A program made the position numbers and the translations under genes. A model generated the notes under the pieces. The model was not told where the DNA came from. It did not search any database and saw only the letters and a list, made by a program, of their open reading frames with translations. DNA of 64,000 bases from IMG/VR virus record IMGVR_UViG_3300048839_001435; one strand, written 5' to 3'. This document shows, one piece after another, positions 4,543-56,315 of the stretch. The stretch comes from an uncultured virus (IMG/VR IMGVR_UViG_3300048839_001435) (taxonomy: Duplodnaviria > Heunggongvirae > Uroviricota > Caudoviricetes). The first letter of the stretch is position 1. Each line of letters starts with the position of its first letter.

Positions 4543-5977
4543 TCACCGCCAGCGGCGGTTCAGCGGAGCTGGGTGCGTCGGAAACGTGCGCTGAGACACG
4601 CGCGGGATGCACACGTGGGCGCGACCTCCGCCGGGGCACAGCAGGCTGTAGCAAGCCCCTGGGGCGAAGCCGTGAGCAAGCGCCCAGGCGATGAGGCAGT
4701 CGTAGCTGATGGCGCCGGCGTCACAGGGAGACGCCGTGTGCGGGTTGCACACGGGCCTCCGCTGGTTCTGCGGCGCGGGGTGGTTGGGGAAGAACGCGGC
4801 CGTCAGCATGGACTACTCCTGGAGGCTTCGGATGAACGCCGTCGCTTGGTGTTCGATGTGGTCGAAGACCGCGGCGGCGGCGTGCCGCTTGAGCGTCTCG
4901 CGGTCGTTGGCGGTCACGACGATGCCCAGGTCTTCGATGGATCCGATGAGCCCGACAGGGCTGCGAACCACCTGAACATGGAGCAGCATGCTGCCGACGG
5001 TCAGCGCGAAAGGCTCTTCGAGCCCTACGGGAGCTGGCTGCATGTGGGTGTCGAGCAGCATATCCCGCCGGCGCCGGCTACGCCAGAGGGCAGCGGACCC
5101 GCAGGAAGTCAGCCACTTCCAGCAACGCTGTCCGGTACTGCTCGGGGGTGGCCGGACGGCCGTACTCGTCCTTGTTGCGGCACGGCGGCGACGCCCACAC
5201 GATGCGCCCGAGCTTGTTCTGCGTCAGGTCGCGGTTTCGGTAGACGTGGAAGAAGAACCCCTCTGGACCCCCCGTGAAACAGAACACGACGACGAAGTTC
5301 GGCCCGTAGTGCATAGCCCACTGAGAACGAATTTCGCCGTCCTTGCCCAGCTCGGGGGCGCAGGGAGACCCGATGACTTCCTCGGCGAGTTGAATCACGC
5401 CGAAGAACAAGCTGATGTCGGCCGGGTTCCCGTCGGGCAGAATGCTCATGGAGGAGGCTCCGTCTTCTTGGCGACGCGCCGTGCGGCTTGATGCCGGCGA
5501 CAGTCGCCGCAGATCCAGTCTGTGTCGCCGTTGCCGACTGGCTGACGTAGCCAGCCGGCGCTGGCAGCTGTGTCGTTGACGCTCTCAGCTTCGATCGCGA
5601 CGACGATCTCCCCGACACGCAGCAGGGCGTTGACGCTCAGCCGCGCGGCGCAGTAGCGGCACTCCAACACAGCTTGGATACGACTTGGAGCCATCGCCCT
5701 GAGCATACCAAGGTAGCTATGCCGGTCGGACGATCTCGACGACGAAGTTACTGCCATCGGCGATCGCGATGCGGTGGAGCCGTCGACTCGGGTCTTCCAA
5801 GACGAGGCTCCACGACGTGTCGTCGATCGCGACAGCCCGCACGACGCCCGTGCACACCGTGTGGTACAGCGGGGTGGGGCCCGAGAACGTCCCCGTGTTC
5901 GACCACGGACTAGAGATGTCCTGCAACACCTGGACGCTCGCGCCGAGGAGATCGGAGTGGAACGCCCGCATGCCTAG
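4543..5977 (-). other. Run of small coupled hypothetical ORFs (about 4543-4809, 4813-5061, 5078-5449, 5446-5710, 5717-5972)
   Basis: Abutting minus-strand ORFs; one has CxxC...WICGDC zinc-finger motifs. Confidence 0.55.
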
Positions 5978-8295
5978 ATCTTGATCTCGACGTCCTTCAT
6001 CTCGACGACGCCCACCAGGTCGTTGCCGTCGAGCTTGAGCGTCATCGTGTTCTCCTCCAGCGAGGCGAACTCGTCGAACCAGATCTGCCCCACCACGATC
6101 GAGAACACGCGCTGCGCCTTGTTGAAGATGCAGCCGCGCGTCGCGGCCGTCGTGGCGTCGAGCTTGCCGTCGAGCCACTTCTCGTGGAACTTGTCCGGGT
6201 TCTTGGCGAAGAAGCGATCGACCTCTTCGATCGTCTCTGCCATCAGCGCAGCGTTGCCCGTGACCTTGCCCTTGGCCATCTTCTCGCGGACGTCCTTGAC
6301 GGACGGCAGCGTGCTGTAGCCCTTGAGGCTCACGGCGAGCTGCTTGCCGACGTAGAAGTCGGTGCTCTCGGCGACGACCTGCTTGGGCGAGAAGCCCGAG
6401 TAGTCCGTGATGCCCTGCTCCTTGAGCCAGTTCGCGGCGGCCTCACCGTAGCTCGCCTTGAAGCCCTTCGACTCCTTCGGCCACTTGTCCTTCTTGATCG
6501 TGTTGTAGACCTTCTGCTCGGCGCGCAGCTTGGTCAGCTCCCACTCCAGCGTGAACAGATCCTTGGCGCTGGCCGCCTTGATCATCTTGCGGTTCATGAT
6601 CGGCAGCTTGCCGACGTTGATGACCTCGGCGCCGCCTTCGAGCGTGACCTCGACGCCGGCGTTCCGCAGCGTCTTGCGCGCCGCCGGACTCATCACGACC
6701 GGCAGCTTGTCGACGTTGACGAGCCCGTCCTTGACGATGGCGTAGTTGCGGTAGATGAACGTCGGGAACGTCTCGGGGATGCTGCCCTTGAACTCGGCGG
6801 GCAGGCGTCCCGCGAGGTTGACCGTACCCTCCTTGCGGACCAGCACGCTGATGTTCGGGCGCTCCTCGTTGTACGTCAGCGAGGAGACGGCGTAGCCGTC
6901 AGCCGCCGGCCGCGGCTCGAACTTCAGCGACGTGCGCTTCGACGCCATGATCGCGTCGATCTCAGCCTGGTACTCCTTGATCTTGGCCACGGCCTTGGTC
7001 TTGCGCATTTTCGCCGTCAGCTCGTCGACCTGGGCCTGCTCCTCGGTCGACAGGTTCTCGTCGGCGTCGACCCGCGCCCGCGAGATCCGGTTGTAGGCGA
7101 ACGCGGGGTGGTCGAGCAGCAGCCGGCACTTATCGTCCTGGCTCAGCGTCTGGAGCAGGTCGAACACCGTGAAGGCGTCGTCCGGCGGCACCCGCGTCGG
7201 GTCCCAGCCCGACGTGTACCGCTTGCTGTCGTCGAACGCTGCCGCCTGCGCGGCCTGCATGAAGTCGGAGTAGCGCTGCTTGCCGAAGCAGACCGAGAAC
7301 GCGTTGATGAACGACACGTCTCCGATCGCGCGCAGGATCGGGTAGACGATGTCCGGCTTCATGCGCACCGCCAGGACGCTCATGGCGGCGTAGGCGTCCC
7401 CGATGGTGTCGCCGTCGCTGCGCGTCTTCGAGACGGTCGCGAGCGGGTCGCCGACCGTGCCGACCGGCGCCGGCGCCAGGTAGGCCAGCGACCGCGTGCC
7501 CTCGGGCACCAGCGCCTTGCCCGTGGACGTATCGAACGTCACGAGATCGCGGTTGTCGTCGAGCACCCAGCACAGGCCGAGGATCGGATCCCCCGCGACC
7601 GCGACCTCGATGCGCTTGCCGCCGGCGAGCGGCTTGGTGAGCGTCCGCTCGAACTCGGGCGCATACTTGTCGAAGGTGTCGGCGAAGATCAGGCTGCCGC
7701 CGGCCTTCTCCGCCATCGTGCTGAGCAGGTTGCGATCAGCGTAGTAGCCGTACTCGACGAACGTCGCGCTGGCGAGCTGCTTGCCCGTCTTCTCGACGGC
7801 GCGGACGATGTCGGGACGGGACCACTGGTTGTCGCAGCCGTCGCTCATGAAGAACAGCGCGAACACGGCATCCTTGGGACCCTGCTTGCCGATCTTGCCG
7901 ATCAGGCGGTCGACTTCCTCCATCGGCTCCTTGAAGCCCGTGAGCCCCACCGGCTTGAGCCAGCGGTCGATCGCGTGGTTGACCTCCTGGAGATCGGCCA
8001 GCGTCGCGACGGGCTCGGCCTCGATCAGCGTCCCGAACTGCCCGCGCCCCGAGAACCAGACGATGGAGATCGTGTCGTCCTTGTGGAGCAGCTTGGGCAG
8101 CCGCTTCTTGAGCTGCTCGCGGATCTTCGGCAGCTCCGACGACATGCTGCCGCTGCAGTCGATGACGGCGACGTGGTGCACTGGAGGCCGCACGGCCACC
8201 GGCTTTACCTTCGTGACGGGCTGCCGCACGAGGTAGAGGTTCTTGTCGATGCTGTGACTGATCGTGCCGACGGTCGTGATGCTGATCTTGGCCAT
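5974..8295 (-). CDS. Large VWA (von Willebrand A) domain protein; start 8295 or 8328
   Basis: MIDAS motif VIDCSGSMS, FFMSDG; strong codon bias. Confidence 0.85.
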   Translation of the reverse strand: MAKISITTVGTISHSIDKNLYLVRQPVTKVKPVAVRPPVHHVAVIDCSGSMSSELPKIREQLKKRLPKLLHKDDTISIVWFSGRGQFGTLIEAEPVATLADLQEVNHAIDRWLKPVGLTGFKEPMEEVDRLIGKIGKQGPKDAVFALFFMSDGCDNQWSRPDIVRAVEKTGKQLASATFVEYGYYADRNLLSTMAEKAGGSLIFADTFDKYAPEFERTLTKPLAGGKRIEVAVAGDPILGLCWVLDDNRDLVTFDTSTGKALVPEGTRSLAYLAPAPVGTVGDPLATVSKTRSDGDTIGDAYAAMSVLAVRMKPDIVYPILRAIGDVSFINAFSVCFGKQRYSDFMQAAQAAAFDDSKRYTSGWDPTRVPPDDAFTVFDLLQTLSQDDKCRLLLDHPAFAYNRISRARVDADENLSTEEQAQVDELTAKMRKTKAVAKIKEYQAEIDAIMASKRTSLKFEPRPAADGYAVSSLTYNEERPNISVLVRKEGTVNLAGRLPAEFKGSIPETFPTFIYRNYAIVKDGLVNVDKLPVVMSPAARKTLRNAGVEVTLEGGAEVINVGKLPIMNRKMIKAASAKDLFTLEWELTKLRAEQKVYNTIKKDKWPKESKGFKASYGEAAANWLKEQGITDYSGFSPKQVVAESTDFYVGKQLAVSLKGYSTLPSVKDVREKMAKGKVTGNAALMAETIEEVDRFFAKNPDKFHEKWLDGKLDATTAATRGCIFNKAQRVFSIVVGQIWFDEFASLEENTMTLKLDGNDLVGVVEMKDVEIKI

Positions 8296-8347
8296 GGTGC
8301 GGGCGACTGTATCCCGGGTGTCTGACAAGTCCGGTACGGCGCGGACC

Positions 8348-8386: not shown

Positions 8387-8463
8387 CGCGGGATGGAGCA
8401 GCCCGGTAGCTCGTGAGGCTCATAACCTCAAGATCGCAGGTTCAAATCCTGCTCCCGCAACCA
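8387..8463 (+). tRNA. tRNA-fMet(CAT)
   Basis: Cloverleaf, C1:A72 mismatch, encoded CCA. Confidence 0.95.
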
Positions 8464-8738
8464 CACCAGCAACCATACCACGCCAACGCCATGACGACAT
8501 CCTTCCGCACCTTCACGACCGAAACCGAGCGCGGCGCGCGCTTGGCGGCGGCGTGGCGCGGGTGCGGTAGGGACTCTGCCAGCGCGGGCTTTCTGGGTAT
8601 GGGCTATCTGTCGAAGCGCTCGCTCCACATCCAGGCCCCGCAGAACCCCAGGAGTGGCCTCATCGAGTAACCCGGCTAGAGATAGCCAGACCCGATGAGG
8701 CCGCCCAGGAGGAATCCTAGGCGGCCTCAGTCGTTTCT

Positions 8739-8818
8739 GGGGGTGTTGCGACTATGGAAGTCCGGCGGACTGTAAATCCGTTGCTTCGGCCAGCCAGGTT
8801 CGATTCCTGGCACCCCCA
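8739..8818 (+). tRNA. tRNA-Tyr(GTA)
   Basis: GGGGGTG/CACCCCC, loop CT-GTA-AA, variable arm. Confidence 0.9.
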
Positions 8819-8893
8819 CGATGCGCCACCTACGGCGCCGCATCGAACCTTCATGCCCCTCCAGCTCAAACAGACGACGCTCGGCATCCTCCG

Positions 8894-8966
8894 GCCGTCG
8901 TAGCTCAACAGGTAGAGCATCGTACTTTTAATACGATCGATAGGAGTTCGACTCTCCTCGGCGGCA
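8894..8966 (+). tRNA. tRNA-Lys(TTT)
   Basis: TCGTA-CT-TTT-AA-TACGA. Confidence 0.93.
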
Positions 8967-8972
8967 CTTCAT

Positions 8973-9043
8973 TCGGGCTTCGTCCAACGGTAGGACATCG
9001 GACTCTGACTCCGAGAATCTAGGTTCGAATCCTGGAGCCCGAA
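8973..9043 (+). tRNA. tRNA-Gln(CTG)
   Basis: TCGGA-CT-CTG-AC-TCCGA. Confidence 0.93.
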
Positions 9044-9187
9044 CCGCGCAACTGCGACACGCGTGATCGACCGGCACACACCAAAAACGCCAACAGACAC
9101 GGTGCCCGCGGGGCAAACGCACGATTCGTCGTGTATGACAAACGAATAGTTGACGACGAAGATGAGCAGGGCCCCGCCCTGCTCCAT

Positions 9188-9263
9188 GCCTCGGCAGCTT
9201 GGGAGGTCCAAGCGCTGGTCTGAAAAGCCGGAGAAGATCGTTCGACTCGATCCCGGGGCACCA
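9188..9263 (+). tRNA. tRNA-Phe(GAA)
   Basis: CTGGT-CT-GAA-AA-GCCGG, CCA. Confidence 0.93.
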
Positions 9264-9264
9264 T

Positions 9265-9337
9265 GGGTCCGTAGCTCATTTGGGAGAGCGCGTCGATGGC
9301 ATCGATGAGGTGAGGGGTTCGAATCCCCTCGGATCCA
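9265..9337 (+). tRNA. tRNA-Ala(GGC)
   Basis: G3:U70, loop AT-GGC-AT. Confidence 0.93.
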
Positions 9338-9343
9338 CGCTGT

Positions 9344-9419
9344 GTGCTCGTAGTTCAGCGGCCAGAACGCCGGTATGACACGCCGGAGATCGCAGGTTCG
9401 ATTCCTGCCGGGCACACCA
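9344..9419 (+). tRNA. tRNA-Val(GAC)
   Basis: CCGGT-AT-GAC-AC-GCCGG, CCA. Confidence 0.93.
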
Positions 9420-9420
9420 C

Positions 9421-9491
9421 GGGTTGCTAGTGTAACGGTCGCATACTTGGCTCTTAACCAAGCGGACAGGGTTCGAATCCCTGGCAGCCTA
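9421..9491 (+). tRNA. tRNA-Lys(CTT)
   Basis: CTTGG-CT-CTT-AA-CCAAG. Confidence 0.92.
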
Positions 9492-9527
9492 CTTTGATCA
9501 GTCGTGCGTGCTACATCATTTTCCACG

Positions 9528-9920
9528 ATGGCTAGTCGCGAGTACCACAGGAAGTACATGAAGACGCGGTACCACGCACGTCGGGCGCTAGCTGAGCGCC
9601 TGCTCGGCGGAGCTTGCGCACACTGTGGTGCCACTGAAGAGCTGGAAATCGACCATATCGATGCCCGCGCGAAAACCATGTCGACAACGCGCATGACGGC
9701 AGTGTCAGAAGAACGGTTTCTGGCTGAGCTGAGTAAGTGCCAATTGCTGTGCCGTCCATGCCACAGCGACAAGAGCATCAAAGATCACGGCCACAATAAA
9801 GCCAAGGGAGAACACGGGACACGCTCGTCTTACCGCTACTGTCGTTGTGATGCTTGTCGACAAGCTCAGGCCCAGTACAACAAAAAATACTACAGATCGC
9901 GTTTGGAGCTGAAGAGGTGA
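9528..9920 (+). CDS. HNH endonuclease
   Basis: CAHCG...LEIDHID...CQLLCRPCH, C-terminal HGT..Y..CRC..C; lower GC than flanks. Confidence 0.85.
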   Translation: MASREYHRKYMKTRYHARRALAERLLGGACAHCGATEELEIDHIDARAKTMSTTRMTAVSEERFLAELSKCQLLCRPCHSDKSIKDHGHNKAKGEHGTRSSYRYCRCDACRQAQAQYNKKYYRSRLELKR

Positions 9921-9987
9921 AGTGGTCGCCTACCTGTTTTGAACGCAGGGTGCCGTAACGGGCCGGGTTCGAATCCTATCAGCTCCG
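9905..9987 (+). tRNA. tRNA-Ser(TGA), weak T-stem
   Basis: GGAGCTG/CAGCTCC-G73, loop TT-TGA-AC, variable arm. Confidence 0.8.
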
Positions 9988-9992
9988 CATCT

Positions 9993-10078
9993 GGAGTGTG
10001 CACGTCAGGTGGCTGACGACCCGTTTGGAAGACGGTGTGGCCCCGCAAGGGGCCGCAGTTCGACTCTGCCGCACTCCG
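9993..10078 (+). tRNA. tRNA-Ser(GGA)
   Basis: Loop TT-GGA-AG, variable arm GGCCCC-GCAA-GGGGCC, G73. Confidence 0.85.
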
Positions 10079-10092
10079 CGTGACTGAACGAT

Positions 10093-10183
10093 GGAAGACG
10101 TAGTGGCCAGGGTGCCACCGCCGTTTCGAATGCGGCTGAGTCGGGATAGCATCTCGGCTGGGGGTCGGGACCTCCGTCTTCCG
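10093..10183 (+). tRNA. tRNA-Ser(CGA), non-canonical T-loop
   Basis: GGAAGAC/GTCTTCC-G, GCCGT-TT-CGA-AT-GCGGC, long variable arm. Confidence 0.8.
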
Positions 10184-10192
10184 CGCTAGCTT

Positions 10193-10264
10193 GGGTCCAT
10201 GGCTCAATGGGAGAGCATCCGCCTTGCACGCGGAGGGTTGGGAGTTCGAATCTCCCTGGATCCA
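10193..10264 (+). tRNA. tRNA-Ala(TGC)
   Basis: G3:U70, TCCGC-CT-TGC-AC-GCGGA. Confidence 0.93.
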
Positions 10265-10280
10265 CGATACACTGCCTGAC

Positions 10281-10595
10281 ATGTCCAAGCCGAGCTGCAG
10301 GCGGTTCTCCGACCAAGGCCAAGCGCTTACCGCGTTCCGTACCGCAGCGGCGAAGTTCGGCCGAGCGCTGCGCCAGGCGAAGGTCTGGGCTGAGGCAGGG
10401 AGTACGCGCAAGGCGCGTGATCATCAGCTGAAGGCCGACCGGGCACTCAAGAACGCGGACGTCGCCTTGATGTGTGCGGGCGAGCTGTTCACCGATGTCG
10501 GATATGATCGCCAAGGGCGCATCTACAGGCGATACGAAGATGGCCTCGAACAGATGCAGAACAAATACAAGCGCGTCGTCAAGACGCTCTACTGA
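10281..10595 (+). CDS. Hypothetical protein within the tRNA array
   Basis: ORF fills the spacer between two tRNAs. Confidence 0.6.
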   Translation: MSKPSCRRFSDQGQALTAFRTAAAKFGRALRQAKVWAEAGSTRKARDHQLKADRALKNADVALMCAGELFTDVGYDRQGRIYRRYEDGLEQMQNKYKRVVKTLY

Positions 10596-10600
10596 TGCCT

Positions 10601-10689
10601 GGAAACGCTGTGGGCGCCGGTGCCCCACACCGGTTTGCTAAACCGGCGGCCTGAAAGATGGTCTGGGAGTTCGACTCTCCCCGTTTCCG
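10601..10689 (+). tRNA. tRNA-Ser(GCT)
   Basis: CCGGT-TT-GCT-AA-ACCGG, variable arm, G73. Confidence 0.9.
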
Positions 10690-10693
10690 CGAC

Positions 10694-10765
10694 GGGTCCA
10701 TGGCTCAACGGGAGAGCGCTGCGATCGCACCGCAGAGATTGAGGGTTCGATTCCCTCTGGATCCA
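10694..10765 (+). tRNA. tRNA-Ala(CGC)
   Basis: G3:U70, CTGCG-AT-CGC-AC-CGCAG. Confidence 0.92.
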
Positions 10766-10771
10766 CGACAC

Positions 10772-10844
10772 CGGGGTGGTGGCGCGTTGGTGCGCTGCTC
10801 GGTTTGGAACCGAGAGTTGGCAGGTTCGACTCCTGTCACCCCGA
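10772..10844 (+). tRNA. tRNA-Pro(TGG)
   Basis: CGGGGTG/CACCCCG-A, CTCGG-TT-TGG-AA-CCGAG. Confidence 0.9.
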
Positions 10845-10852
10845 CGAAGATT

Positions 10853-10924
10853 GCAGGTGTAGCTCAGTGGTAGAGCGTCGCGTTGCCAACGCGAAGATCG
10901 TGGGTTCGATCCCCATCGCCTGCT
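10853..10924 (+). tRNA. tRNA-Gly(GCC)
   Basis: TCGCG-TT-GCC-AA-CGCGA, U73. Confidence 0.94.
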
Positions 10925-10930
10925 CGACAT

Positions 10931-11001
10931 GCCGACGTAGCACAGTGGCAGTGCGGTGAGCTTGTACCTCACTGGTATCGGTTCGACTCCGATCGTCGGC
11001 T
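10931..11001 (+). tRNA. tRNA-Thr(TGT)
   Basis: GTGAG-CT-TGT-AC-CTCAC. Confidence 0.92.
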
Positions 11002-11008
11002 CTAGTCC

Positions 11009-11082
11009 GCCCCGTAGGTGTCAACTGGCTGCACGCTCGTTTCGTAAGCGAGAGGCACGCGGTTCAAGTCCGCGACGGGGCT
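11009..11082 (+). tRNA. tRNA-Thr(CGT)
   Basis: CTCGT-TT-CGT-AA-GCGAG. Confidence 0.92.
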
Positions 11083-11087
11083 CCCAT

Positions 11088-11160
11088 GTTCCAGTAGCTC
11101 AATGGTCAGAGCGGCGGCCTGTTAGACCGCGGGTTGGGGGTTCGAGTCCCTCCTGGAACG
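11088..11160 (+). tRNA. tRNA-Asn(GTT)
   Basis: GTTCCAG/CTGGAAC-G73, loop CT-GTT-AG. Confidence 0.9.
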
Positions 11161-11161
11161 C

Positions 11162-11245
11162 TGCAGAGTGGCCGAATGGCGAAGGCACGCGGCTGTTTCC
11201 CGCGCGGAGTTACTCCCATTGCAGGTTCGAATCCTGCCTCTGCAG
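11162..11245 (+). tRNA. tRNA with GTT (Asn) anticodon on a class II long-variable-arm body
   Basis: TGCAGAG/CTCTGCA-G73, CGCGG-CT-GTT-TC-CCGCG, variable arm GGAG-TTA-CTCC. Confidence 0.85.
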
Positions 11246-11251
11246 CTTCAC

Positions 11252-11322
11252 GCGTGCCTGGTGTAGTGGTCGCACGGCTGGCTTCCACCCAGTCGGAAGG
11301 GGTTCGAGTCCCCTGGCACGCT
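11252..11322 (+). tRNA. tRNA-Gly(TCC)
   Basis: GCTGG-CT-TCC-AC-CCAGT, U73. Confidence 0.92.
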
Positions 11323-11343
11323 CCGCGGTGATACAGTCGACGC

Positions 11344-11538
11344 ATGCGCGATCCAGCTCGCATCGACTGGGTAGTTCGAGTGCTCGCGGAAGCCTGGCGG
11401 ACCTCGCCCGATCTTCGGCTGGGTCAGCTGGTCCACGCGGTCGCCGAGTACAACGACGAAGACGACGTCATCGTCGACCGCCTGCTCGCGTTTCTGCCAC
11501 CGGCGATTCGGCTCCAGCTTTTGCTGGGTCCTCGGTGA
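11344..11538 (+). CDS. Small conserved phage protein (DUF1040/YihD-like)
   Basis: MRDPARID....L..AW...PDLRLGQLV motif; TACAGT -10 box 6 nt upstream. Confidence 0.7.
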   Translation: MRDPARIDWVVRVLAEAWRTSPDLRLGQLVHAVAEYNDEDDVIVDRLLAFLPPAIRLQLLLGPR

Positions 11539-11540
11539 AG

Positions 11541-11611
11541 GGGCTGCCTAGGTTCACGTAGAGCCGCGACAACTGATGTCGAGGACCCGGTTCGACTCCG
11601 GGGGCAGTTCG
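11541..11611 (+). tRNA. Atypical tRNA-like gene, anticodon ambiguous (CTG in loop AA-CTG-AT)
   Basis: GGGCTGCC/GGCAGTTC 8 bp, D-arm GGTTC-ACGTA-GAGCC, perfect T-arm. Confidence 0.65.
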
Positions 11612-11616
11612 AGTTT

Positions 11617-11688
11617 GGCCTTGTCGTACAGCGGCAAGTACGCCGGTCTCTCACGCCGGAAACGAGGGTTCGATTCCCTCCAAGGTCA
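11617..11688 (+). tRNA. tRNA-Glu(CTC)
   Basis: CCGGT-CT-CTC-AC-GCCGG. Confidence 0.92.
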
Positions 11689-11704
11689 CCGTAACGTATG
11701 TCAT

Positions 11705-11782
11705 ACCTCTGTAGCTCAGTGGATTAGAGCGCCTGGCTACGAACCAGGAGGATCGCAGGTTCGAGTCCTGCCAGGGGTACCA
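11705..11782 (+). tRNA. tRNA-Arg(ACG)
   Basis: CCTGG-CT-ACG-AA-CCAGG, CCA. Confidence 0.94.
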
Positions 11783-11783
11783 A

Positions 11784-11855
11784 GGGTTGCGCGCTGGGGC
11801 GCGGGACGGTCTCCAAAACCGACCTTGCAGGGTTCGATTCCCTGGTGGCCCGCCA
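11784..11855 (+). tRNA. tRNA-Trp(CCA), minimal D-arm
   Basis: CGGT-CT-CCA-AA-ACCG, G73-CCA. Confidence 0.85.
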
Positions 11856-11856
11856 T

Positions 11857-11926
11857 CGCAGTACGCCTAGGATGGCCCGCGGGTTTCATACGCCTGTCGG
11901 CGACGGTTCGATTCCGTCTACTGCGA
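11857..11926 (+). tRNA. tRNA(CAT), elongator Met or Ile2, minimal D-arm
   Basis: CGCAGTA/TACTGCG-A, GCGGGT-TT-CAT-AC-GCCTGT. Confidence 0.8.
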
Positions 11927-11934
11927 CCGCGAAT

Positions 11935-12002
11935 GCCGAGGCCGCTGGGCGGGGACGGCTCTTACAAAGCTGTCCGGCAGGGTCCGATTCCCTGACTCGG
12001 TA
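11935..12002 (+). tRNA. tRNA-Val(TAC), minimal D-arm, extended anticodon stem
   Basis: GACGGCT-CT-TAC-AA-AGCTGTC; T-loop TCCGATT. Confidence 0.8.
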
Positions 12003-12005
12003 CGA

Positions 12006-12077
12006 CGGGGTGTAGCGAAGTGGTATCGCGCCGCGTTCGGGACGCGGAGACCGGAGGTTCGATCCCTCTCACCCCGA
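12006..12077 (+). tRNA. tRNA-Pro(CGG)
   Basis: CCGCG-TT-CGG-GA-CGCGG. Confidence 0.94.
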
Positions 12078-12083
12078 CGAGAC

Positions 12084-12158
12084 TGGTCTGTAGCTCAACG
12101 GTAGAGCACTCGGCCGATAACCGAGCGATGCGCGGTTCGATTCCGCCCAGACCAACCA
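12084..12158 (+). tRNA. tRNA-Ile(GAT), C at position 33
   Basis: CTCGG-CC-GAT-AA-CCGAG, CCA. Confidence 0.9.
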
Positions 12159-12159
12159 T

Positions 12160-12232
12160 GGTGGCTATGATGTAGTGGTCTGCATGGCAGAATGTGAATC
12201 TGCAAGTGTCGGTTCGATCCCGACTAGCCACC
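12160..12232 (+). tRNA. tRNA-His(GTG)
   Basis: G-1:C73, GCAGA-AT-GTG-AA-TCTGC. Confidence 0.93.
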
Positions 12233-12250
12233 CCGTGATAGGCTCGACGT

Positions 12251-12742
12251 ATGCGGCTCATGCTCCTGACCTCGGTCCTGGTCGTCGCGGCGCCGGCGTG
12301 CGGCGACAACACGTGGCCGGCGTTGCCGCGGGTCGTGTTGACCTTCGACGACTGGGGCCCCGAGATCGCTGAGGACGCCGAGGTCTGGGAGCAGATCGGC
12401 TTCGACGTGGTCACGGACGACCCGGGGCAGCAGCCCGTCTGCGCGCAGCGCTGGTACGACTACGAGTGGGACGGCTGCGAGATCCGGGTCAGGATCAAGG
12501 CAGCTTCCCAGCTCGACAACGGCGCCGTCGGACGCGCGCTCCGCGGCCTCGGCGAGATCTGGATCCTCGACACAACTCAGCGCCCTGGGCTCGTCCTCGC
12601 GCACGAGCTGGGGCACATCGTGCTCAACACCGGCGAGCACGTCGACGAGGGCCTGATGTCGGCGACGACGGTCAGCATCACGTTCGAGCTGACCGACGAA
12701 GACCTGGCCTTGGCATGCAAAGCAGCCGGCATCGGCTGCTAG
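12251..12742 (+). CDS. Lipoprotein zinc metallopeptidase (matrixin-like)
   Basis: Lipobox APAC-GDN; LAHELGHIV...H...LM Met-turn; TAGGCT -10 box 6 nt upstream. Confidence 0.8.
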   Translation: MRLMLLTSVLVVAAPACGDNTWPALPRVVLTFDDWGPEIAEDAEVWEQIGFDVVTDDPGQQPVCAQRWYDYEWDGCEIRVRIKAASQLDNGAVGRALRGLGEIWILDTTQRPGLVLAHELGHIVLNTGEHVDEGLMSATTVSITFELTDEDLALACKAAGIGC

Positions 12743-12746
12743 AGAT

Positions 12747-12818
12747 CAGCTCGTAGTGGAGTGGCACCACGCCGGTCTGGGGGACCGGAAGTCGCAGGTT
12801 CAATTCCTGCCGAGCTGA
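12747..12818 (+). tRNA. tRNA-Pro(GGG)
   Basis: CCGGT-CT-GGG-GG-ACCGG. Confidence 0.92.
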
Positions 12819-12825
12819 CCGAGTA

Positions 12826-12923
12826 GAGACGGGCGAAGGGCTTACGGGCGACGGCCCGTCCTGGGGGTGCGATTCCCCTCCCTGGAAGAGCAGGAACAAG
12901 GGGTTCGAATCCCCGCCGTCTCG
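12826..12923 (+). tRNA. Atypical class II tRNA-like gene with enlarged D region, loop TG-CGA-TT
   Basis: GAGACGG/CCGTCTC-G, GGGG-TTCGAAT-CCCC, hairpin ACGGGC-GACG-GCCCGT, variable arm CCTG/CAGG. Confidence 0.6.
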
Positions 12924-12949
12924 GAGGGCTTCAGGGGGCCCACTCACTA

Positions 12950-13023
12950 GGGAACGTAGCCCAGCGGAAGGAGGCGCAGGTCTCAGAAGCCTGACAGGGT
13001 CGGTTCGAATCCGACCGTTCCCA
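12950..13023 (+). tRNA. tRNA-Leu(CAG), short variable loop
   Basis: CAGGT-CT-CAG-AA-GCCTG, A73. Confidence 0.9.
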
Positions 13024-13030
13024 CGATCTC

Positions 13031-13104
13031 GGGTTGGTAGTCCAATGGAAGGAGACGCAGTGTTGAGGGCACTGACAGTGCGGGTTCGACTCCCGCCCAA
13101 CCCA
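13031..13104 (+). tRNA. tRNA-Leu(GAG), short variable loop
   Basis: CAGTG-TT-GAG-GG-CACTG, A73. Confidence 0.9.
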
Positions 13105-13110
13105 CGAAAT

Positions 13111-13183
13111 GGCGTCGTAGCCCAGCGGCAGAGGCACTCGGCTTAGAACCGAGCAAGCGTGAGTTCGACCCTCACCGGCGCCA
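13111..13183 (+). tRNA. tRNA-Leu(TAG), short variable loop
   Basis: CTCGG-CT-TAG-AA-CCGAG, A73. Confidence 0.9.
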
Positions 13184-13191
13184 CTTTTCTC

Positions 13192-13264
13192 GCCGACGTA
13201 GTCCAGTGGAAGAGACAGCCGCCTCAAGATCGGCTCAGGGTGGGTTCGAATCCCGCCGTCGGCA
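13192..13264 (+). tRNA. tRNA-Leu(CAA), short variable loop
   Basis: GCCG-C-CT-CAA-GA-T-CGGC, A73. Confidence 0.88.
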
Positions 13265-13304
13265 CGTGTAGACTCGACAAGCAGACCACAGGAGCAACGA
13301 CGTC

Positions 13305-13835
13305 ATGGAGGCTCGAACACTTCTTCTCGACCAGAGCTACACCCCGATCCAGGTGATCCCCTGGCAGCGCGCGTTGACCTTGTTCTTCCAGAACAAGGTA
13401 GAGGTCGTCAGCGAGTACGACGGCTTCGCGCGGTCGCCGACGGTGATCATCAAGATCCCCGCCGTCGTCCGGCTCATCGGCGCGTTCCGCCGGCAGCGCA
13501 AGGCCGTGAAGTTCTCGCGCATCAACATCTACGCGCGTGACGACTTCCGGTGCCAGTTCTGCGCGACGAAGCTGCCCGCGGCCGAGCTGACCTACGACCA
13601 CGTCGTGCCGCGTGCGCAGGGCGGCAAGACGACGTGGACGAACATCGTGACCGCGTGCGAGCCGTGCAACCGGCGCAAGGGCAACAAGACGCCGGCGCAG
13701 GCGGGCATGAAGCTCCGCAAGGAGCCACGTCAGCCCAAGGCGCTCAGCGCGCTGGCGCTCAACATCAACCCCAAGTCGAGCCCGGAAGAGTGGCGGTCGT
13801 TCCTGTACTGGAACGCCGAACTCGACCAGGACTGA
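13305..13835 (+). CDS. HNH endonuclease (HNH_5/McrA-like)
   Basis: RBS AGGAG; FSRINIYARDDFRCQFC...LTYDHVVPRAQGG.T.W.NIV.AC..CNRRKG. Confidence 0.92.
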   Translation: MEARTLLLDQSYTPIQVIPWQRALTLFFQNKVEVVSEYDGFARSPTVIIKIPAVVRLIGAFRRQRKAVKFSRINIYARDDFRCQFCATKLPAAELTYDHVVPRAQGGKTTWTNIVTACEPCNRRKGNKTPAQAGMKLRKEPRQPKALSALALNINPKSSPEEWRSFLYWNAELDQD

Positions 13836-13844
13836 TTCCACCCC

Positions 13845-13874
13845 GCCGTCCGAGGAGGTAGCGCCTCGGGCGGC
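13845..13874 (+). other. Strong GC hairpin after the HNH gene (processing or termination signal)
   Basis: GCCGTCCGAGG-8 nt-CCTCGGGCGGC; no U-tract. Confidence 0.5.
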
Positions 13875-13879
13875 ACCCT

Positions 13880-13952
13880 GCACTCAAGTCTCCCTGGTGG
13901 GAGTGCCTGACTGTCTATCAGGATCTGGCGGGTTCGATTCCCGTTGGGTGCG
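13880..13952 (+). tRNA. tRNA-Asp(GTC)
   Basis: CCTGA-CT-GTC-TA-TCAGG, G73. Confidence 0.88.
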
Positions 13953-13958
13953 CTTCAC

Positions 13959-14032
13959 GCCCACTAAGTTTCCGCGGCTCGGAACGCGGCGCTGGTATCG
14001 CCGAGGGTGCGGTTCGACCCCGCAAGTGGGCT
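13959..14032 (+). tRNA. tRNA-Thr(GGT)
   Basis: CGGCG-CT-GGT-AT-CGCCG. Confidence 0.9.
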
Positions 14033-14092
14033 CTCAGAAACAAGAATATCCCGAACCGGTGCGAACCGTAAGCTGAGTGGCATCAAACGTAC

Positions 14093-14167
14093 TCGGGCGT
14101 AGTTCAATGGTAGAACGCTGCTCTTTGAAAGCAGATGTTGGACGTTCGAATCGTTCCGTCCGAACCA
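14093..14167 (+). tRNA. tRNA-Gln(TTG)
   Basis: CTGCT-CT-TTG-AA-AGCAG, CCA. Confidence 0.93.
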
Positions 14168-14313
14168 TCCACGAAAGGTAACTTCGATGCAGTCCTGCGA
14201 CAGTACGTGTTCATGGTGCGCCCGGGACTTCTGGCGCTGGGTCGCCAGCCGGATGTACAGCATGGCGCGCGGCGGCGAGAGCAGCTTCGCCGCGGCGGCC
14301 GTCGGCTCTGTTC

Positions 14314-14385
14314 GACCTCGTAGCCAAGCCGGGAAGGCAGCGGTCTGCAACACCGCCAGCGTCGGTTCGACTCCGACCGAGGTCT
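14314..14385 (+). tRNA. tRNA-Cys(GCA)
   Basis: GCGGT-CT-GCA-AC-ACCGC, U73. Confidence 0.93.
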
Positions 14386-14387
14386 CG

Positions 14388-14950
14388 ATGCGCAAGATCA
14401 AGATCGCCACAGACCTGTCCGATCCGCCGCCGCTGACCCCGGAGATCAGCGCCGAGCTGGCGCGCCAAGGGCAGCAAGCCCAAGATGCCTACCTCAAGGC
14501 GACGGCCCACATGGAGCAGCTGACCTTCGAGGATCTCTACAGGCCGATCCGCTGAGCGTCATACGCCCGTGGTACGGTGCCGCGTATGGCATGGGACAGT
14601 CCTCCACCACTCAGTCTCGCCGAGGTCGACCGGCGACTCGATCAACGCATCGCCGATCTCACCGCGGCGCTTCAGCTCGTGAAGAAGCAGCGCGAGTGCG
14701 CGCACCACTTCACCGAGGAGCGCTCCACGAACCTCGGAGGTGAGCGCGAGGTCTCGGTCACGTGTCTGGTGTGCGGCTTCGTGTGGTACTGATGGCCGAC
14801 GAACTCTCGAAGAAGATCAAGCTCGTCATTGACGATCCAGAGACGCGCGCTATCTGGGAGAGCGTCAAGCGTGCGGCGGCAGAGGTCAAGTCCTGGCCCG
14901 CGTGGAAGCGCGGTGAGTGTCCTTGCTGCCGCTTCGAATACCTCGCCTGA
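14388..14950 (+). other. Three small hypothetical ORFs (14388-14555, about 14586-14792, 14792-14950)
   Basis: Coupled ORFs; CxH...CxxC and CPCC motifs. Confidence 0.55.
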
Positions 14951-14953
14951 TTC

Positions 14954-15024
14954 GGCTCGACTGCTGGATTGCAGACCTGGACCTTCTAAGTCCGCGGTGC
15001 GGGGTTCGATTCCTCGTCGAGCTA
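14954..15024 (+). tRNA. tRNA-Arg(TCT), minimal D-arm
   Basis: TGGAC-CT-TCT-AA-GTCCG; D-arm CTGC-TGGATT-GCAG directly after the acceptor stem. Confidence 0.85.
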
Positions 15025-15330
15025 CTTGAGCCGCGGGCAGCCGGCGGCGGGGCTCCACGCCCACGCGATCAGCGCCAAATGCCGTCGAGTCGGGCGGCCT
15101 CGACGGTCGTAGAGGCCCTCACCGCCGCGCCGGCGCTGCGCCTCGTGGCGGGCGATGAAGCCGTCACGGCGGCGGCGCCAGTACGGCGACAGCTTGCTGG
15201 CCTTGCCGCCAGCCTTCTTGTAGGCCGTCAGGAAGCCGCGAGGTGACCGCGCGACCTCGGAGACGCCCTGCGCGCGCATCGCGGGCACGTGGCGTTGGAT
15301 GCAGTCCAGGCTGAGATACCGCCGGCTCAT
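15022..15330 (-). CDS. Small basic conserved hypothetical protein, antisense within the tRNA array
   Basis: ATG at 15330 with TACGCT -10 box 6 nt upstream; GVSEVARSPRGFL..Y and PTRRHLALIAWAWSP motifs. Confidence 0.75.
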   Translation of the reverse strand: MSRRYLSLDCIQRHVPAMRAQGVSEVARSPRGFLTAYKKAGGKASKLSPYWRRRRDGFIARHEAQRRRGGEGLYDRRGRPTRRHLALIAWAWSPAAGCPRLK

Positions 15331-15351
15331 GCGTCTAGCGTACCAGGGTTT

Positions 15352-15425
15352 GCTCCCGTATCGGCCTCGTTTCCTAAACGAGCGTACCGTAGTGGACGAC
15401 GCAGGTTCGAGTCCTGCCGGGAGCA
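15352..15425 (+). tRNA. tRNA-Arg(CCT) lacking a D-arm, with long variable arm
   Basis: GCTCCCG/CGGGAGC-A; 7-nt connector; CTCGT-TT-CCT-AA-ACGAG; perfect T-arm. Confidence 0.85.
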
Positions 15426-15441
15426 CTTCGTCGTCAGCTAC

Positions 15442-15513
15442 GCGACCGTCGTCCAGTGGATAGGACACAAGCCTCCGAAGCCTGAAACGCAGGTTCGAGT
15501 CCTGCCGGTCGCA
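15442..15513 (+). tRNA. tRNA-Arg(CCG)
   Basis: Loop CT-CCG-AA, A20 in D-loop. Confidence 0.9.
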
Positions 15514-15517
15514 CTCC

Positions 15518-15594
15518 GCGCTGTTCGTCTAGAGGTTCAGGACCCCGGATTTTCACTCCGGGTGGCAGGGGTTCAAATCCCCTACAGCGCACCA
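15518..15594 (+). tRNA. tRNA-Glu(TTC)
   Basis: CCGGA-TT-TTC-AC-TCCGG, CCA. Confidence 0.93.
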
Positions 15595-15631
15595 AGACAA
15601 CGTCATACGGCCGTGACATAGTCGGCGGGTC

Positions 15632-16492
15632 ATGCTGCCGTTTGCTTGGGCCTCCGATGTCCACCTCGACCACTGCTCCGACGTCAACGCCTTGGCGTTT
15701 CTGAAGCAGGTCCAGACGGTCGACCACCTCGTCGTCACCGGCGACATCTCGACGGCAAGCCGGCTACTTCAGCACCTCGACGACATGCGCGTCATGGTCC
15801 CGAAGCTGTCGTTCGTCCTGGGCAACCACGACTACTACGGTAGCTACGTCGACAAGGTGCAGCAGGCGACGCGGTTGTGGGCGACCAAGCATGCGCCCGA
15901 CGTCACGTACCTCGACGCCAGCGCCGCCGTCGACCTCGGAGACGGTGCGTGGCTCGTCGGCGTCGACGGCTACGCCGACGGCCGCGCTGGGGATCTGTTC
16001 GCCTCGACGGTCTGGCTCAACGACTACGTCTTCTGCAAGACCTTCACGGGCTGCACGCCCGCGCGGCGTACCGATCTGCAGCGCGTCCTGCAGCAGCTCG
16101 CGGCCGAGAGCGTCACCAAGCTCACCAGCAAGCTGCTCGATCTCTTCGGCGAGCGCACGCCGCGGGCGGTCTACGTCGCCACGCACGCGCCGCCGTGGGA
16201 CGCCGCACACTGGTACAACGGCAACAAGGGCGATATGCACTGGGCGCCACACTTCGTCAACGTCGCGCTCGGGCGCGAGATCGAAGCGTGGGCGAAGCGC
16301 CACGCCTCGACGGAGTTCACGGTCGTCTGCGGACACACGCACGGTCCCGTACGAGCTGCGATCGCCCCGAACCTGACGTGTCTCGTGGCGTGGTCGCGCT
16401 ACGGCCAGCCCGTGTTGCAGAACCCCGCTACGCTGCCGTCACCGGCGGAGATCGCCGCCGCTCCGGCGGCCCACGTGAAGTACCGTCCGTGA
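15632..16492 (+). CDS. Calcineurin-like metallophosphoesterase
   Basis: SDVH, TGD, LGNHD, TH, CGHTH motifs. Confidence 0.92.
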   Translation: MLPFAWASDVHLDHCSDVNALAFLKQVQTVDHLVVTGDISTASRLLQHLDDMRVMVPKLSFVLGNHDYYGSYVDKVQQATRLWATKHAPDVTYLDASAAVDLGDGAWLVGVDGYADGRAGDLFASTVWLNDYVFCKTFTGCTPARRTDLQRVLQQLAAESVTKLTSKLLDLFGERTPRAVYVATHAPPWDAAHWYNGNKGDMHWAPHFVNVALGREIEAWAKRHASTEFTVVCGHTHGPVRAAIAPNLTCLVAWSRYGQPVLQNPATLPSPAEIAAAPAAHVKYRP

Positions 16493-21873: not shown

Positions 21874-22626
21874 ATGAGCGACCCCAAGGCCATCAACTTC
21901 GACAAGGCAATCGCCTACAACGACAAGCAGATCGCCTCGGGGGCGTTCACGCCCGAGATGATCGCGACGCTGGTCGCCGCGTGGCAGAGCGCGCACGGCC
22001 TCGACGCCGATGGCATGTGCGGACCTGCGACGCAGTCCAGCATCACGACGCTGATCGACGATCGTACGGAGGCGCCGCCACCGAAGTGGGCTCCGTTCGA
22101 CGGGCCTCTGGCGCGGCAGCCTCAGACGCGCCGCGAGGTCTACGAGGTCTTCGGCAACCCGGGCACCGGCGCAGTCGACGGCGCGTGGGAGAAGGCCAAC
22201 ATCATCACGACGCGGACGCTCCCGGGCATCCCGTCGAAGTGGTACTTCCAGTGCCACCGGCTCGTCGAGCCGTACCTGCGTGAAGGCTTGCGCCGCGCTC
22301 AGCTCGCAGCCCCCGACTACAAGATCGAGCGCGCAGCGTCGTTCGTGTTCCGCCACCAGCGCTACGACGCCTCCCGGCCGCTGAGCTACCACAGCTGGGG
22401 CATCGCGATCGACATCGACGCCGACCGCAACTTCGCCAAGACGTTCTCGCCCGCGGCGAAGACCCCCGAGCCGTGGTCGCCGGAGTGGATGAAGATCTGG
22501 CCGAAGGGCTTGCCTCAGGCGTTCATCGAGGCGATGGAATCCGTCGGGTTCGTCTGGGGCGGGCGCTGGAAGGGCTTCTGCGATCCGATGCACCTGGAGT
22601 GGGTCGATGGCGCTGTCCCCGTCTGA
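21874..22626 (+). CDS. Endolysin: peptidoglycan-binding domain plus M15-family peptidase
   Basis: WQSAHGLDADGMCGPAT; SYHSWGIAIDI; GFVWGGRW...DPMHLE. Confidence 0.92.
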   Translation: MSDPKAINFDKAIAYNDKQIASGAFTPEMIATLVAAWQSAHGLDADGMCGPATQSSITTLIDDRTEAPPPKWAPFDGPLARQPQTRREVYEVFGNPGTGAVDGAWEKANIITTRTLPGIPSKWYFQCHRLVEPYLREGLRRAQLAAPDYKIERAASFVFRHQRYDASRPLSYHSWGIAIDIDADRNFAKTFSPAAKTPEPWSPEWMKIWPKGLPQAFIEAMESVGFVWGGRWKGFCDPMHLEWVDGAVPV

Positions 22627-25651: not shown

Positions 25652-26338
25652 CTCAGCCAACCGACGCCGCGCCGCGCGCCGTCTTTGCGGGAAGACACTC
25701 CGAGAGTGGTGCGCCGCGTTCCCTGCCAGCCTACCCAGCGGCTGCGCCCCCAGATCGTCGACACCAGCTGCGGCATATTGGATCTCGATCGAGATCGCGA
25801 CAGATACTCTGTGCGACTACGACTAGACGACGACGTTGGCCGCGGCCGGCGAAGTACCCGTAGAGCCATCAGCGTGTTCACTGAAGGCTCTCCAGTGCCG
25901 TCCTGCGCAGAGGTTGCCACCATTTGCGGATGGAGTAGGCCGACTGGCCAAGACGTCTCCAGTTCTCGACGCCGTCGCAGCGAGACGCCCCCCGGTGGCG
26001 GAGCGCGCGAGAGATCGACTCGGTCACGCGGGTGAGGTTACGGGACCCACTGATCGTGCGCCGTGGATGGGCAAAGATCCTGTATGACAGTTGGACCGGA
26101 ATCATCGGCTACGCCAAGATGGTGACCGCCGTGATCGCCACGAAGTCGCCGACAGCTTCACGCCGTCCGGTCGAGAAAGAAGTGTAGTACACCGGGAACC
26201 GGCCGTTTGTGCGCGACACCGACCCGTGCTCTCCGCGGTTTACCCGCGACGCCGTCGACGACCTCGACGTTTTGTGGGGCCAGTCGTGGCGCTGCCGGCA
26301 GGCATCCGAGAGCAAGTGCGCTTTCGTCAGGACGAAGC

Positions 26339-27049
26339 CTAGTTGCGCAGTGCACACGCTTCTCTAGGCACATACGCCGTCTTGTTGCACCGCGGGCACG
26401 TAGAACCCCACGGCGCCGGCAGCACCCGCGTGAGCGGGTCGGGTCCGCGTGCCAACTGCTCGTACGTGACGCCTCGAACCTCCTCTCGCCACGCGGTCAT
26501 CCTGGGCTGCCAGTCAGCAGCCCGCACGATGGTGCCCTCGAACCGCCACACCCCTCGGGCGCGAAGCTCCCCGACGAAGTGGCTCATGCGGTCCAGATGA
26601 CGGGAGAGCCCCATCAACTCACCGTACGTGGCTGATGCCAGGCCCGTCAGTTTGGTCAGCTTGGCGACGTCGCGCTGAGCTGCGGCCTGACGAAGTTGTC
26701 CGCTGCTGCACAGCGCCTGCAGCGTCGTGTTGCGTCCTACGATCGTCCCCGCACGCCAGCTGACGCGCATCGTGAACGGCTCGCCGTCTTCGACGCCCAA
26801 CCAGATCAAGTCGTCGAACGTCTTGATCTCCCACACGCCGACGCAGTTGACCTCGGCCTGCACCGGCTGCGGCCAAGCGCGTGCTTCGATGGCCTTGAGC
26901 GTACGGTAGAACTTGTGCGGCGCTTCGCGCGGCATGATCGAGATCTTCGTCGGATGTCCCACGCGGCGAAACGCGAGGTTCGCGACCCGTTGACGTAGGA
27001 GGTCCGACGTCTGGCGCAGACTCCCCGGAGTGTTGACCGCGGCCGGCAT
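26339..27049 (-). CDS. Hypothetical protein with C-terminal CxxC
   Basis: ORF track. Confidence 0.6.
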   Translation of the reverse strand: MPAAVNTPGSLRQTSDLLRQRVANLAFRRVGHPTKISIMPREAPHKFYRTLKAIEARAWPQPVQAEVNCVGVWEIKTFDDLIWLGVEDGEPFTMRVSWRAGTIVGRNTTLQALCSSGQLRQAAAQRDVAKLTKLTGLASATYGELMGLSRHLDRMSHFVGELRARGVWRFEGTIVRAADWQPRMTAWREEVRGVTYEQLARGPDPLTRVLPAPWGSTCPRCNKTAYVPREACALRN

Positions 27050-56283: not shown

Positions 56284-56287
56284 GTCA

Positions 56288-56315
56288 AAGTAACATAGCT
56301 GCACTTATGTGACAG
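56288..56315. other. dif-like recombination site (11-6-11)
   Basis: AAGTAACATAG-CTGCAC-TTATGTGACAG; IHF-like TTTCAACTACTTA at 56344-56356. Confidence 0.7.

Follow-up and report, generated by a model that had tools for sequence, protein, structure and literature searches.

Introduction

Natural exceptions to the fixed architecture of transfer RNAs (tRNAs) involve either the loss of an arm, as in mitochondria, or changed stem lengths, as in tRNA-Sec and the allo-tRNAs. Here, we describe a gene whose putative product has the elements of an arginine tRNA in a different chain order. It is located at positions 15352-15425 (plus strand) of a 64,000-nucleotide (nt) stretch of DNA from an uncultured virus (IMG/VR record IMGVR_UViG_3300048839_001435, Caudoviricetes), which is called the window throughout. 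The best explanation of the data, which we regard as probable, is that the gene belongs to a conserved, mostly phage-borne type of rewired tRNA-Arg that would be charged by the arginyl-tRNA synthetase (ArgRS) of the host and would read AGG codons. If this is true, a family that keeps every element but rethreads the chain would be a new kind of exception to the tRNA architecture.

Two groups of described tRNAs are closest to this design. The first are the mitochondrial tRNAs (mt-tRNAs) without a D arm, such as mammalian mt-tRNA-Ser(AGY) and Ascaris mt-tRNA-Ser(UCU), to which the loss of the elbow contacts extends. They resemble the rewired family in that no hairpin separates the acceptor from the anticodon stem, that they are concerned with AGR/AGN-type codons and that cloverleaf models miss them. 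The phage family differs from them in its long-range D stem, full D loop, canonical T loop and covariation of positions 15:48 and 19:56, and it is viral, whereas the D-armless tRNAs are organellar. A 2020 review of non-canonical tRNAs states in its accessible text that type III mitochondrial tRNAs have no D stem and are flexible, and reports the loss of G18/G19 and of the T-loop motif for another mt-tRNA type; in the same text the word "phage" has 0 occurrences and the rewired design is not described (PMC7609411). Full-text searches of the literature, with subscription-only papers outside their scope, found no description of it either.

The second group are the permuted tRNA genes of red algae. 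The genes of this kind in Cyanidioschyzon merolae are permuted as a whole (PMC3728597). The rewired family is similar in that its segment order is a circular permutation of the canonical one, but its ends are normal and only the internal part, positions 10-47, is permuted. In the red-algal genes the 3' half precedes the 5' half, and a circular intermediate leads to a normal mature tRNA; the mature rewired RNA would be expected to keep the permuted order.

With the canonical bacterial and phage tRNA-Arg (RF00005) the rewired family shares the 7-base-pair acceptor stem, the 5-base-pair anticodon and T stems, the 7-nt anticodon loop, U33, A37 and the T-loop motif TTCRA. U8, A14, R15:Y48, G18, G19:C56, A20, A21 and the location in tRNA arrays are kept as well. 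The two differ in that the D-arm strands of the rewired family flank the anticodon arm and its D loop joins directly to position 48, next to which there is no separate variable loop.

Layout of the gene

The ends of the gene are in normal order. The 5' strand of the acceptor stem (positions 1-7, 15352-15358) lies at the 5' end and its 3' strand (15418-15424) at the 3' end, and both form 7/7 Watson-Crick pairs. The discriminator is the A at 15425, and CCA is encoded neither here nor in the neighboring tRNA genes of the window. The anticodon arm (15366-15382) has a stem with 5/5 pairs (15366-15370/15378-15382) and the loop TTCCTAA, in which the anticodon CCT (15373-15375), predicted to read AGG, ends with U36 and is followed by A37 and A38. 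The T arm (15401-15417) also has 5/5 pairs (15401-15405/15413-15417) and contains the loop TTCGAGT with T54, T55 and C56; the whole 17-nt arm is identical to that of the adjoining canonical tRNA-Arg(CCG) at 15442-15514. Acceptor, anticodon and T arm all have their canonical size, and U33, R37 and the TTCRA motif are present.

The region between the acceptor and the anticodon stem is only 7 nt long (15359-15365), compared to about 17 nt for the usual D arm, and no local D-arm hairpin is present between positions 9 and 26. The anticodon and T stems are separated by 18 nt (15383-15400) instead of the usual variable loop of 4-5 nt, and this region includes AGTGGA (15391-15396), which is also found in the D loop of the adjoining tRNA-Arg(CCG). 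These features, the three perfect arms included, had been pointed out in the original prediction and are all read directly from the sequence. Folding of the gene gave a z-score of -2.83, with one of 200 shuffled sequences folding equally well.

Standard tools do not report the gene. ARAGORN called 38 tRNAs in the window (8387-15594), and 15352-15425 is not among them; Rfam searches of the whole window at gathering thresholds yielded 31 tRNA matches and missed it too. When permissive filters were applied to a 371-nt stretch, RF00005 matched with 35.8 bits (gathering score 29) and an E-value of 4.8e-06, in an alignment that deletes 15 model positions of the D arm and inserts 15 nt in the variable region before the T arm.

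A family of rewired tRNA genes

A first pattern scan of viral contigs, based on the anticodon stem-loop, gave at least 119 stretches, and at least seven of them have the same odd layout. Two specific patterns that fixed only G7-T8-A9-Y-C, the loop TTCCTAA, GTAR and GGA yielded 47 and 14, altogether 61 stretches from viral contigs. In 42 of the 61, all three stems (acceptor, anticodon and T) are complete, which was not a requirement of the patterns. The other 19 failed this structural filter: by eye, about 14 of them are unrelated sequences, a number close to the estimated chance expectation, and about five are deviant members in which the T loop is variant or the acceptor stem is weaker. The distinct sequences, 40 including the one from the window, were aligned with MAFFT without being fitted to any structure (alignment A1), and a covariance model, R1, was built from this alignment.

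The model separates the family from ordinary tRNAs, with members scoring 45-88 bits and ordinary tRNAs at most 34 bits. The window gene reaches 84.4 bits, compared to 30.7 for the best ordinary tRNA in the window; being one of the 40 training rows, it owes its score partly to construction. Outside the training set, 33 matches scored 45-77 bits. R1 was also run over whole carrier contigs: the first five revealed extra copies in contig G004 at 71.9 and 59.2 bits (the next match had 33.9 bits), and many of 34 further carrier contigs contain two to four copies, often in tandem. Re-searching the carrier loci with R1 resulted in 64 matches at E <=1e-9, with the anticodons CCT (40), TCT (11), CCG (6), ACG (3), TCG (3) and TAT (1).

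A blastn search with 14900-15650 against phages and plasmids found nothing beyond short matches to individual tRNAs, and single members of 74-76 nt matched mostly the T arms of ordinary tRNAs. Four cultured phages were picked from blastn rows without an annotated feature, and R1 detected a family member in all four: Streptomyces phage Stanimal (locus L219, 2981-3057, CCU, 74.7 bits), Microbacterium phage Zooman (L220, 2972-3047, ACG, 64.4 bits), Agrobacterium phage Atu_ph04 (L221, 1965-2040, UCU, 77.3 bits) and Stenotrophomonas phage SOVA965 (L222, 1995-2069, UCU, 71.5 bits). In Zooman, the gene is located between the annotated tRNA-Arg(acg) and tRNA-Arg(ccg); shortly downstream of this tRNA array, the annotation lists genes for an RtcB-like RNA ligase and an ADP-ribosyltransferase (L220, 5411-6038). 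Salmonella phage Felix O1 (NC_005282.1) carries an unannotated member with the anticodon UCU at 25951-26029 (L245, 57.7 bits). This gene overlaps the first 27 nt of an annotated HNH endonuclease coding sequence (26003-26395), the start of which may be wrong.

In a set of 185,579 prokaryotes with one genome per species, a stricter CCT pattern gave six matches, five of which are true members (68.7-84.8 bits). All five are on contigs of metagenome-assembled genomes, with further tRNA genes no more than 3 kb away; one of them is located beside 25 tRNA genes. The sixth match, in a Paenibacillus isolate, is not hit by R1 and was rejected as a chance match. Counts given below for 73 members refer to 73 distinct sequences, namely the 64 from carrier loci, the four from the cultured phages and the five from metagenome-assembled genomes; the Felix O1 copy was left out of this set. 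Total length in the family is 73-81 nt, and the copies are found in unrelated phages with 39 to 65% GC.

Other family members escape detection as well. At six viral loci the rewired genes were not called by ARAGORN, at one locus of a metagenome-assembled genome the gene was miscalled as a 93-nt tRNA, and none of the five cultured-phage sites examined in GenBank/RefSeq carries a tRNA annotation. With ARAGORN and default Rfam missing these genes, the arginine isoacceptor sets of phages are under-counted, and the cultured carriers include Streptomyces and Microbacterium phages, the hosts of which are non-pathogenic.

The D stem

In the window, T8 and A9 (15359-15360), both invariant in A1, are followed by a T and by CGG (15361-15364), and one unpaired base (15365) then leads into the anticodon stem, as a single unpaired column does in all members. 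CGG (15362-15364) is complementary to CCG (15387-15389), which follows the anticodon arm after the spacer CGTA (15383-15386) and is itself followed by a T (15390). Across the 40 sequences this helix (A1 columns 11-13/37-39) is 99.2% paired. The first pair, a C:G, was fixed by the search pattern, and the other two were free to vary. Pair 12-38 is GC in 23, AU in six, CG in six and UA in five sequences; pair 13-37 is GC in 19, CG in 13, AU in four, UA in three and different in one. If the 3' partners are shifted by one to three columns, pairing of the whole structure falls to 33-45%. RNAalifold predicts the same helix unprompted, and the acceptor stem, with all seven pairs, the anticodon stem and the T stem also covary in the 40 relatives. 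A D stem formed by the 5' linker and the bases after the anticodon arm is thus close to certain, judged by sequence comparison.

This modifies two parts of the original prediction. It had called the gene D-armless, but the 7-nt linker supplies one strand of the 3-base-pair D stem; according to the alignment the gene is not D-armless, and D stem and D loop are both present, though not as a contiguous hairpin. The prediction had also folded the 18-nt region into a hairpin of its own. A truly D-armless tRNA of this type, in which the self-folded variable region presents AGTGGA to the T loop, would have in its favor that the hairpin is part of the minimum free energy (MFE) structure of the window copy, where its secondary-structure energy is lower by 2.6 kcal/mol than that of the long-range helix. 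In the family, however, the two parts of this hairpin are only 36.3% and 34.2% paired across the 40 relatives, and its individual pairs are missing from 17 to 37 of the 40 sequences, while the competing long-range helix shows compensatory changes. Moreover, the hairpin would bury G18 and G19 in a stem, yet position 19 covaries with position 56. We therefore regard a D-armless tRNA as very improbable.

D loop, tertiary pairs and segment order

The 3' strand of the long-range helix precedes a conserved T-A-R motif. After the helix, all members have T, A, R, one or two bases, GG (or GA), A, a few bases, A and Y, followed directly by the T stem. This string can be read as tRNA positions 13, A14, R15, 16/17, G18, G19, A20, 20a/b, A21 and Y48. 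Applied to the window, the reading gives a complete D loop (15391-15399) composed of A14, G15, T, G18, G19, A20, C, G and A21, with C48 at 15400 as the putative Levitt-type partner of G15 (15392). According to the original prediction, an AGTGGA loop not conserved in homologues, together with a lack of charging, would speak against it. The loop is conserved: A14, G18 and A21 are each present in 73/73 members and A20 in 72/72 members with arginine anticodons, and positions 18-19 are GG in 71/73 and GA in 2/73.

Positions 48 and 56 were unconstrained by the search patterns, and both covary with the D loop. The 15:48 pair is A:T in 61, G:C in nine and G:G in three of the 73 members, and A:C or G:T never occur; on the structure-independent alignment A1 the counts are AU 33, GC 6 and other 1. 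The 19:56 pair is G:C in 71 and A:T in two members without a single mismatch, the only members with A19 being the only ones with T56.

The order of segments could be parsed in all 73 members: U8 A9, strand 22-25, base 26, anticodon arm, spacer (3-5 nt in 72/73, in place of variable-loop positions 44-47), strand 10-13, D loop and Y48. Strand polarity forces this mapping, since the 5' strand (15361-15364) leads via one base into the anticodon stem, like canonical 22-25 and 26, and the 3' strand (15387-15390) leads into A14, like canonical 10-13. The mapped segments result in the chain order 1-9, 22-47, 10-21, 48-76, in which positions 10-47 are circularly permuted. In this respect the original prediction of a topologically rewired tRNA-Arg, with the D-loop bases G18, G19 and A20 placed after the anticodon arm, was borne out.

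Such a chain could still adopt the usual shape. The D stem built from two distant segments would stack on the anticodon stem as usual, and the D loop would supply A14 for U8, R15 for Y48, G18 and G19 for the T loop, and A20. In yeast tRNA-Phe, A9 lies in the D-stem groove near position 23, position 45 contacts the 10:25 pair, and A21 stacks by the 8:14 pair, next to 15:48. The new junctions 9 to 22, 47 to 10 and 21 to 48 would then join spatial neighbors of the canonical L shape, and a normal three-dimensional form could be kept.

Alternatively, the gene could be a decayed or rearranged pseudogene, or a canonical tRNA might be made from its transcript by cutting and rejoining, as with the permuted genes of red algae. 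Standard finders miss the gene, and some phages with tRNA arrays encode RNA ligases, for instance the RtcB-like gene near the Zooman array. On the other hand, a pseudogene is hard to reconcile with 73 distinct, covarying copies in unrelated phages, or with the behavior of near-identical metagenome strains, which have 14-16 differences over 15020-15700 and none within 15352-15425. As for rejoining, the acceptor halves already occupy their normal places, and restoring the canonical order would require three cuts and three ligations inside the molecule; such a pathway is not known to exist. Both versions of this explanation appear highly unlikely.

Arginine identity

The anticodons of the 73 distinct members are CCT (46), TCT (13), CCG (6), ACG (4), TCG (3) and TAT (1), and thus NCT or NCG in 72/73. 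All 72 members with arginine anticodons have A20, and the lone UAU member has U20. The bacterial tRNA-Arg identity set consists of A20, C35, U/G36 and A/G73, with A20 as the main determinant for Escherichia coli ArgRS; a table in the same review also lists U73 for bacteria (PMC9976931). The window gene carries A20 at 15396, right after G18 and G19, C35 and U36 in its anticodon, and A73. Furthermore, 26 of the 27 members with an anticodon other than CCT have arginine anticodons, and biases of the seed patterns and of R1 can therefore not explain the restriction to arginine. The existence of the family and its arginine specificity, both deduced from comparison of the sequences, are close to certain.

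The TAT member is located on viral contig G018 (L217, 2541-2617), would read AUA (Ile) and has A as discriminator in addition to U20. This member has the appearance of having left the arginine identity while keeping the architecture of the family.

Genome context and putative function

The window and three complete phage genomes (G025, G037 and G039) were compared with respect to their arginine tRNA genes. In the window, canonical genes are present for ACG (11705-11782), TCT (14949-15025) and CCG (15442-15514), all called by ARAGORN, and the rewired gene has CCT; no canonical tRNA-Arg(CCT) is found among the 38 ARAGORN calls in the window. G025 (97 kb, terminal repeats) has canonical ACG and TCT and rewired CCT and CCG; G037 (70 kb, terminal repeats) has canonical ACG, CCG and TCT and rewired CCT; and G039 (136 kb) has canonical ACG and rewired TCT, CCT and CCG. 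In 4/4 genomes the canonical and rewired anticodons do not overlap and jointly comprise ACG, CCG, TCT and CCT. This complementarity is what working isoacceptors would be expected to show.

The ArgRS core domain PF00750 was found in 0/39 carrier contigs, including 0/10 of those that are at least 90% complete, so that charging would fall to the host enzyme. With A20, C35 and U36 retained in phages without an ArgRS of their own, the host ArgRS would most likely charge the RNA, and the charged RNA would then read AGG and complete the arginine isoacceptor set of the phage tRNA array. AGG accounts for 42 of 956 arginine codons in 54 crudely called open reading frames (ORFs) of the window, and AGA for 17. 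We infer the three-dimensional fold, transcription, processing, charging and decoding of the RNA from these data, and its use as a working AGG-reading tRNA-Arg is likely.

Several points weigh against this interpretation. The D stem has only three Watson-Crick pairs, and for the window copy alone nearest-neighbor energies favor the local hairpin (-29.1 compared to -26.5 kcal/mol for the long-range helix; MFE -30.8 kcal/mol), so that the case for the helix in this copy rests on the family. The argument for an unchanged shape depends on the structure of yeast tRNA-Phe. The discriminator is not limited to the A or G typical of tRNA-Arg (A 27, T 21, G 20 and C 5 in the 73 members). Discovery was biased: CCT was part of the seed patterns, members with other anticodons were detected only where the contig already had a CCT member, and R1 mildly favors C35 and T36. 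The rewired ACG gene of Zooman is redundant, being located directly beside an annotated canonical tRNA-Arg(ACG). Finally, contigs from two RNA libraries cover the window gene at a DNA-like depth of about 7-9, the same as its flanks; coverage data from metagenomes are those of assembled contigs. An 801-nt stretch with the gene was found in runs of 13 studies on freshwater, wastewater, sludge and soil, two metatranscriptome runs included.

The redundancy of the Zooman gene and the flank-level coverage would also suit a conserved tRNA-like RNA with a role outside translation. Such an RNA might serve as a decoy or sponge by which a host enzyme attacking or modifying tRNA-Arg is occupied, or as an element for processing or regulation of the array. 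Countering host defenses that target tRNAs is a role often considered for the tRNA arrays of phages, and it would fit such a role that the unusual topology is kept only for arginine-type anticodon loops. However, the 7-base-pair acceptor stem, U33, A37, the T loop, 15:48, 19:56 and A20 are all under selection, CCA is encoded after the discriminator in 25 of the 40 first members, and in the four genomes examined the rewired genes fill exactly those arginine anticodons that are missing from the canonical set. A role outside translation is therefore doubtful.

A rewired tRNA-Arg that is used in translation would allow a study of how far ArgRS, RNase P, the CCA-adding enzyme, modification enzymes, EF-Tu and the ribosome need connectivity rather than shape. 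The core permutation may be kept for arginine tRNAs in phages across many host phyla because the altered backbone path evades a host factor that recognizes the canonical D arm, for instance a nuclease of a defense system or some other enzyme acting on tRNAs, and the RNA would still serve as a substrate for ArgRS, EF-Tu and the ribosome. This idea is speculative and rather unlikely to be correct. If it were, the L shape would tolerate another chain topology in vivo, and phages would exploit this as a counter-defense.

The surrounding element

The array of 38 tRNA genes called by ARAGORN extends from 8387 to 15594 on the plus strand of the window, which has a GC content of about 66%. An HNH endonuclease gene is located inside the array (13305-13835), and an endolysin-like gene (21874-22626), an integrase gene (55366-56304) and repressor-like genes were found elsewhere in the window, where most remaining ORFs are without a family match. 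This content fits a phage or a related mobile element.

Several neighboring genes were examined. The metallophosphoesterase gene directly downstream, at 15632-16492, gave 14 pattern matches in viral contigs and no confirmed relative among them. Directly upstream of the array, a 784-amino-acid ORF (5974-8328, minus strand) matches phrog_2426, a family with unknown function, with an E-value of 1.7e-166 and has no Pfam match. As a dedicated partner phrog_2426 found no support, being present in 0/39 carrier contigs and matching 4/14 control cellular genomes. Between tRNA-Arg(TCT) and the rewired gene, a 103-amino-acid ORF (15022-15333, minus strand) has a weak match to DUF6321 (22.2 bits, below the cut-off). 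Strain differences in this ORF are mostly spaced by 3 nt (15079, 15082, 15085, 15088, 15091 and 15094), which is the pattern that synonymous changes at third codon positions would leave in a real gene.

Further tRNA genes of the array have uncommon features. Four tRNA-Leu genes (CAG, GAG, TAG and CAA; 12950-13265) are 74-75 nt long, do not have the usual bacterial long variable arm and score 47-57.5 bits with Rfam. A second tRNA-Asn(GTT) at 11162-11246 directly follows a normal 74-nt copy; with its 85 nt (51.5 bits with Rfam), it must contain an extra arm or an insertion. According to ARAGORN, tRNA-Trp(CCA), tRNA-Met(CAT) and tRNA-Val(TAC) are encoded back to back at 11784-12003, with the Met and Val genes overlapping by 3 nt and the Trp and Met anticodons at positions 30 and 31. 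Sensitive Rfam searches of this region gave 29.6 bits for Trp (against tRNA-Sec), 28.2 bits for Met with the D arm skipped, and no match for Val. These three look like further non-standard tRNA genes.

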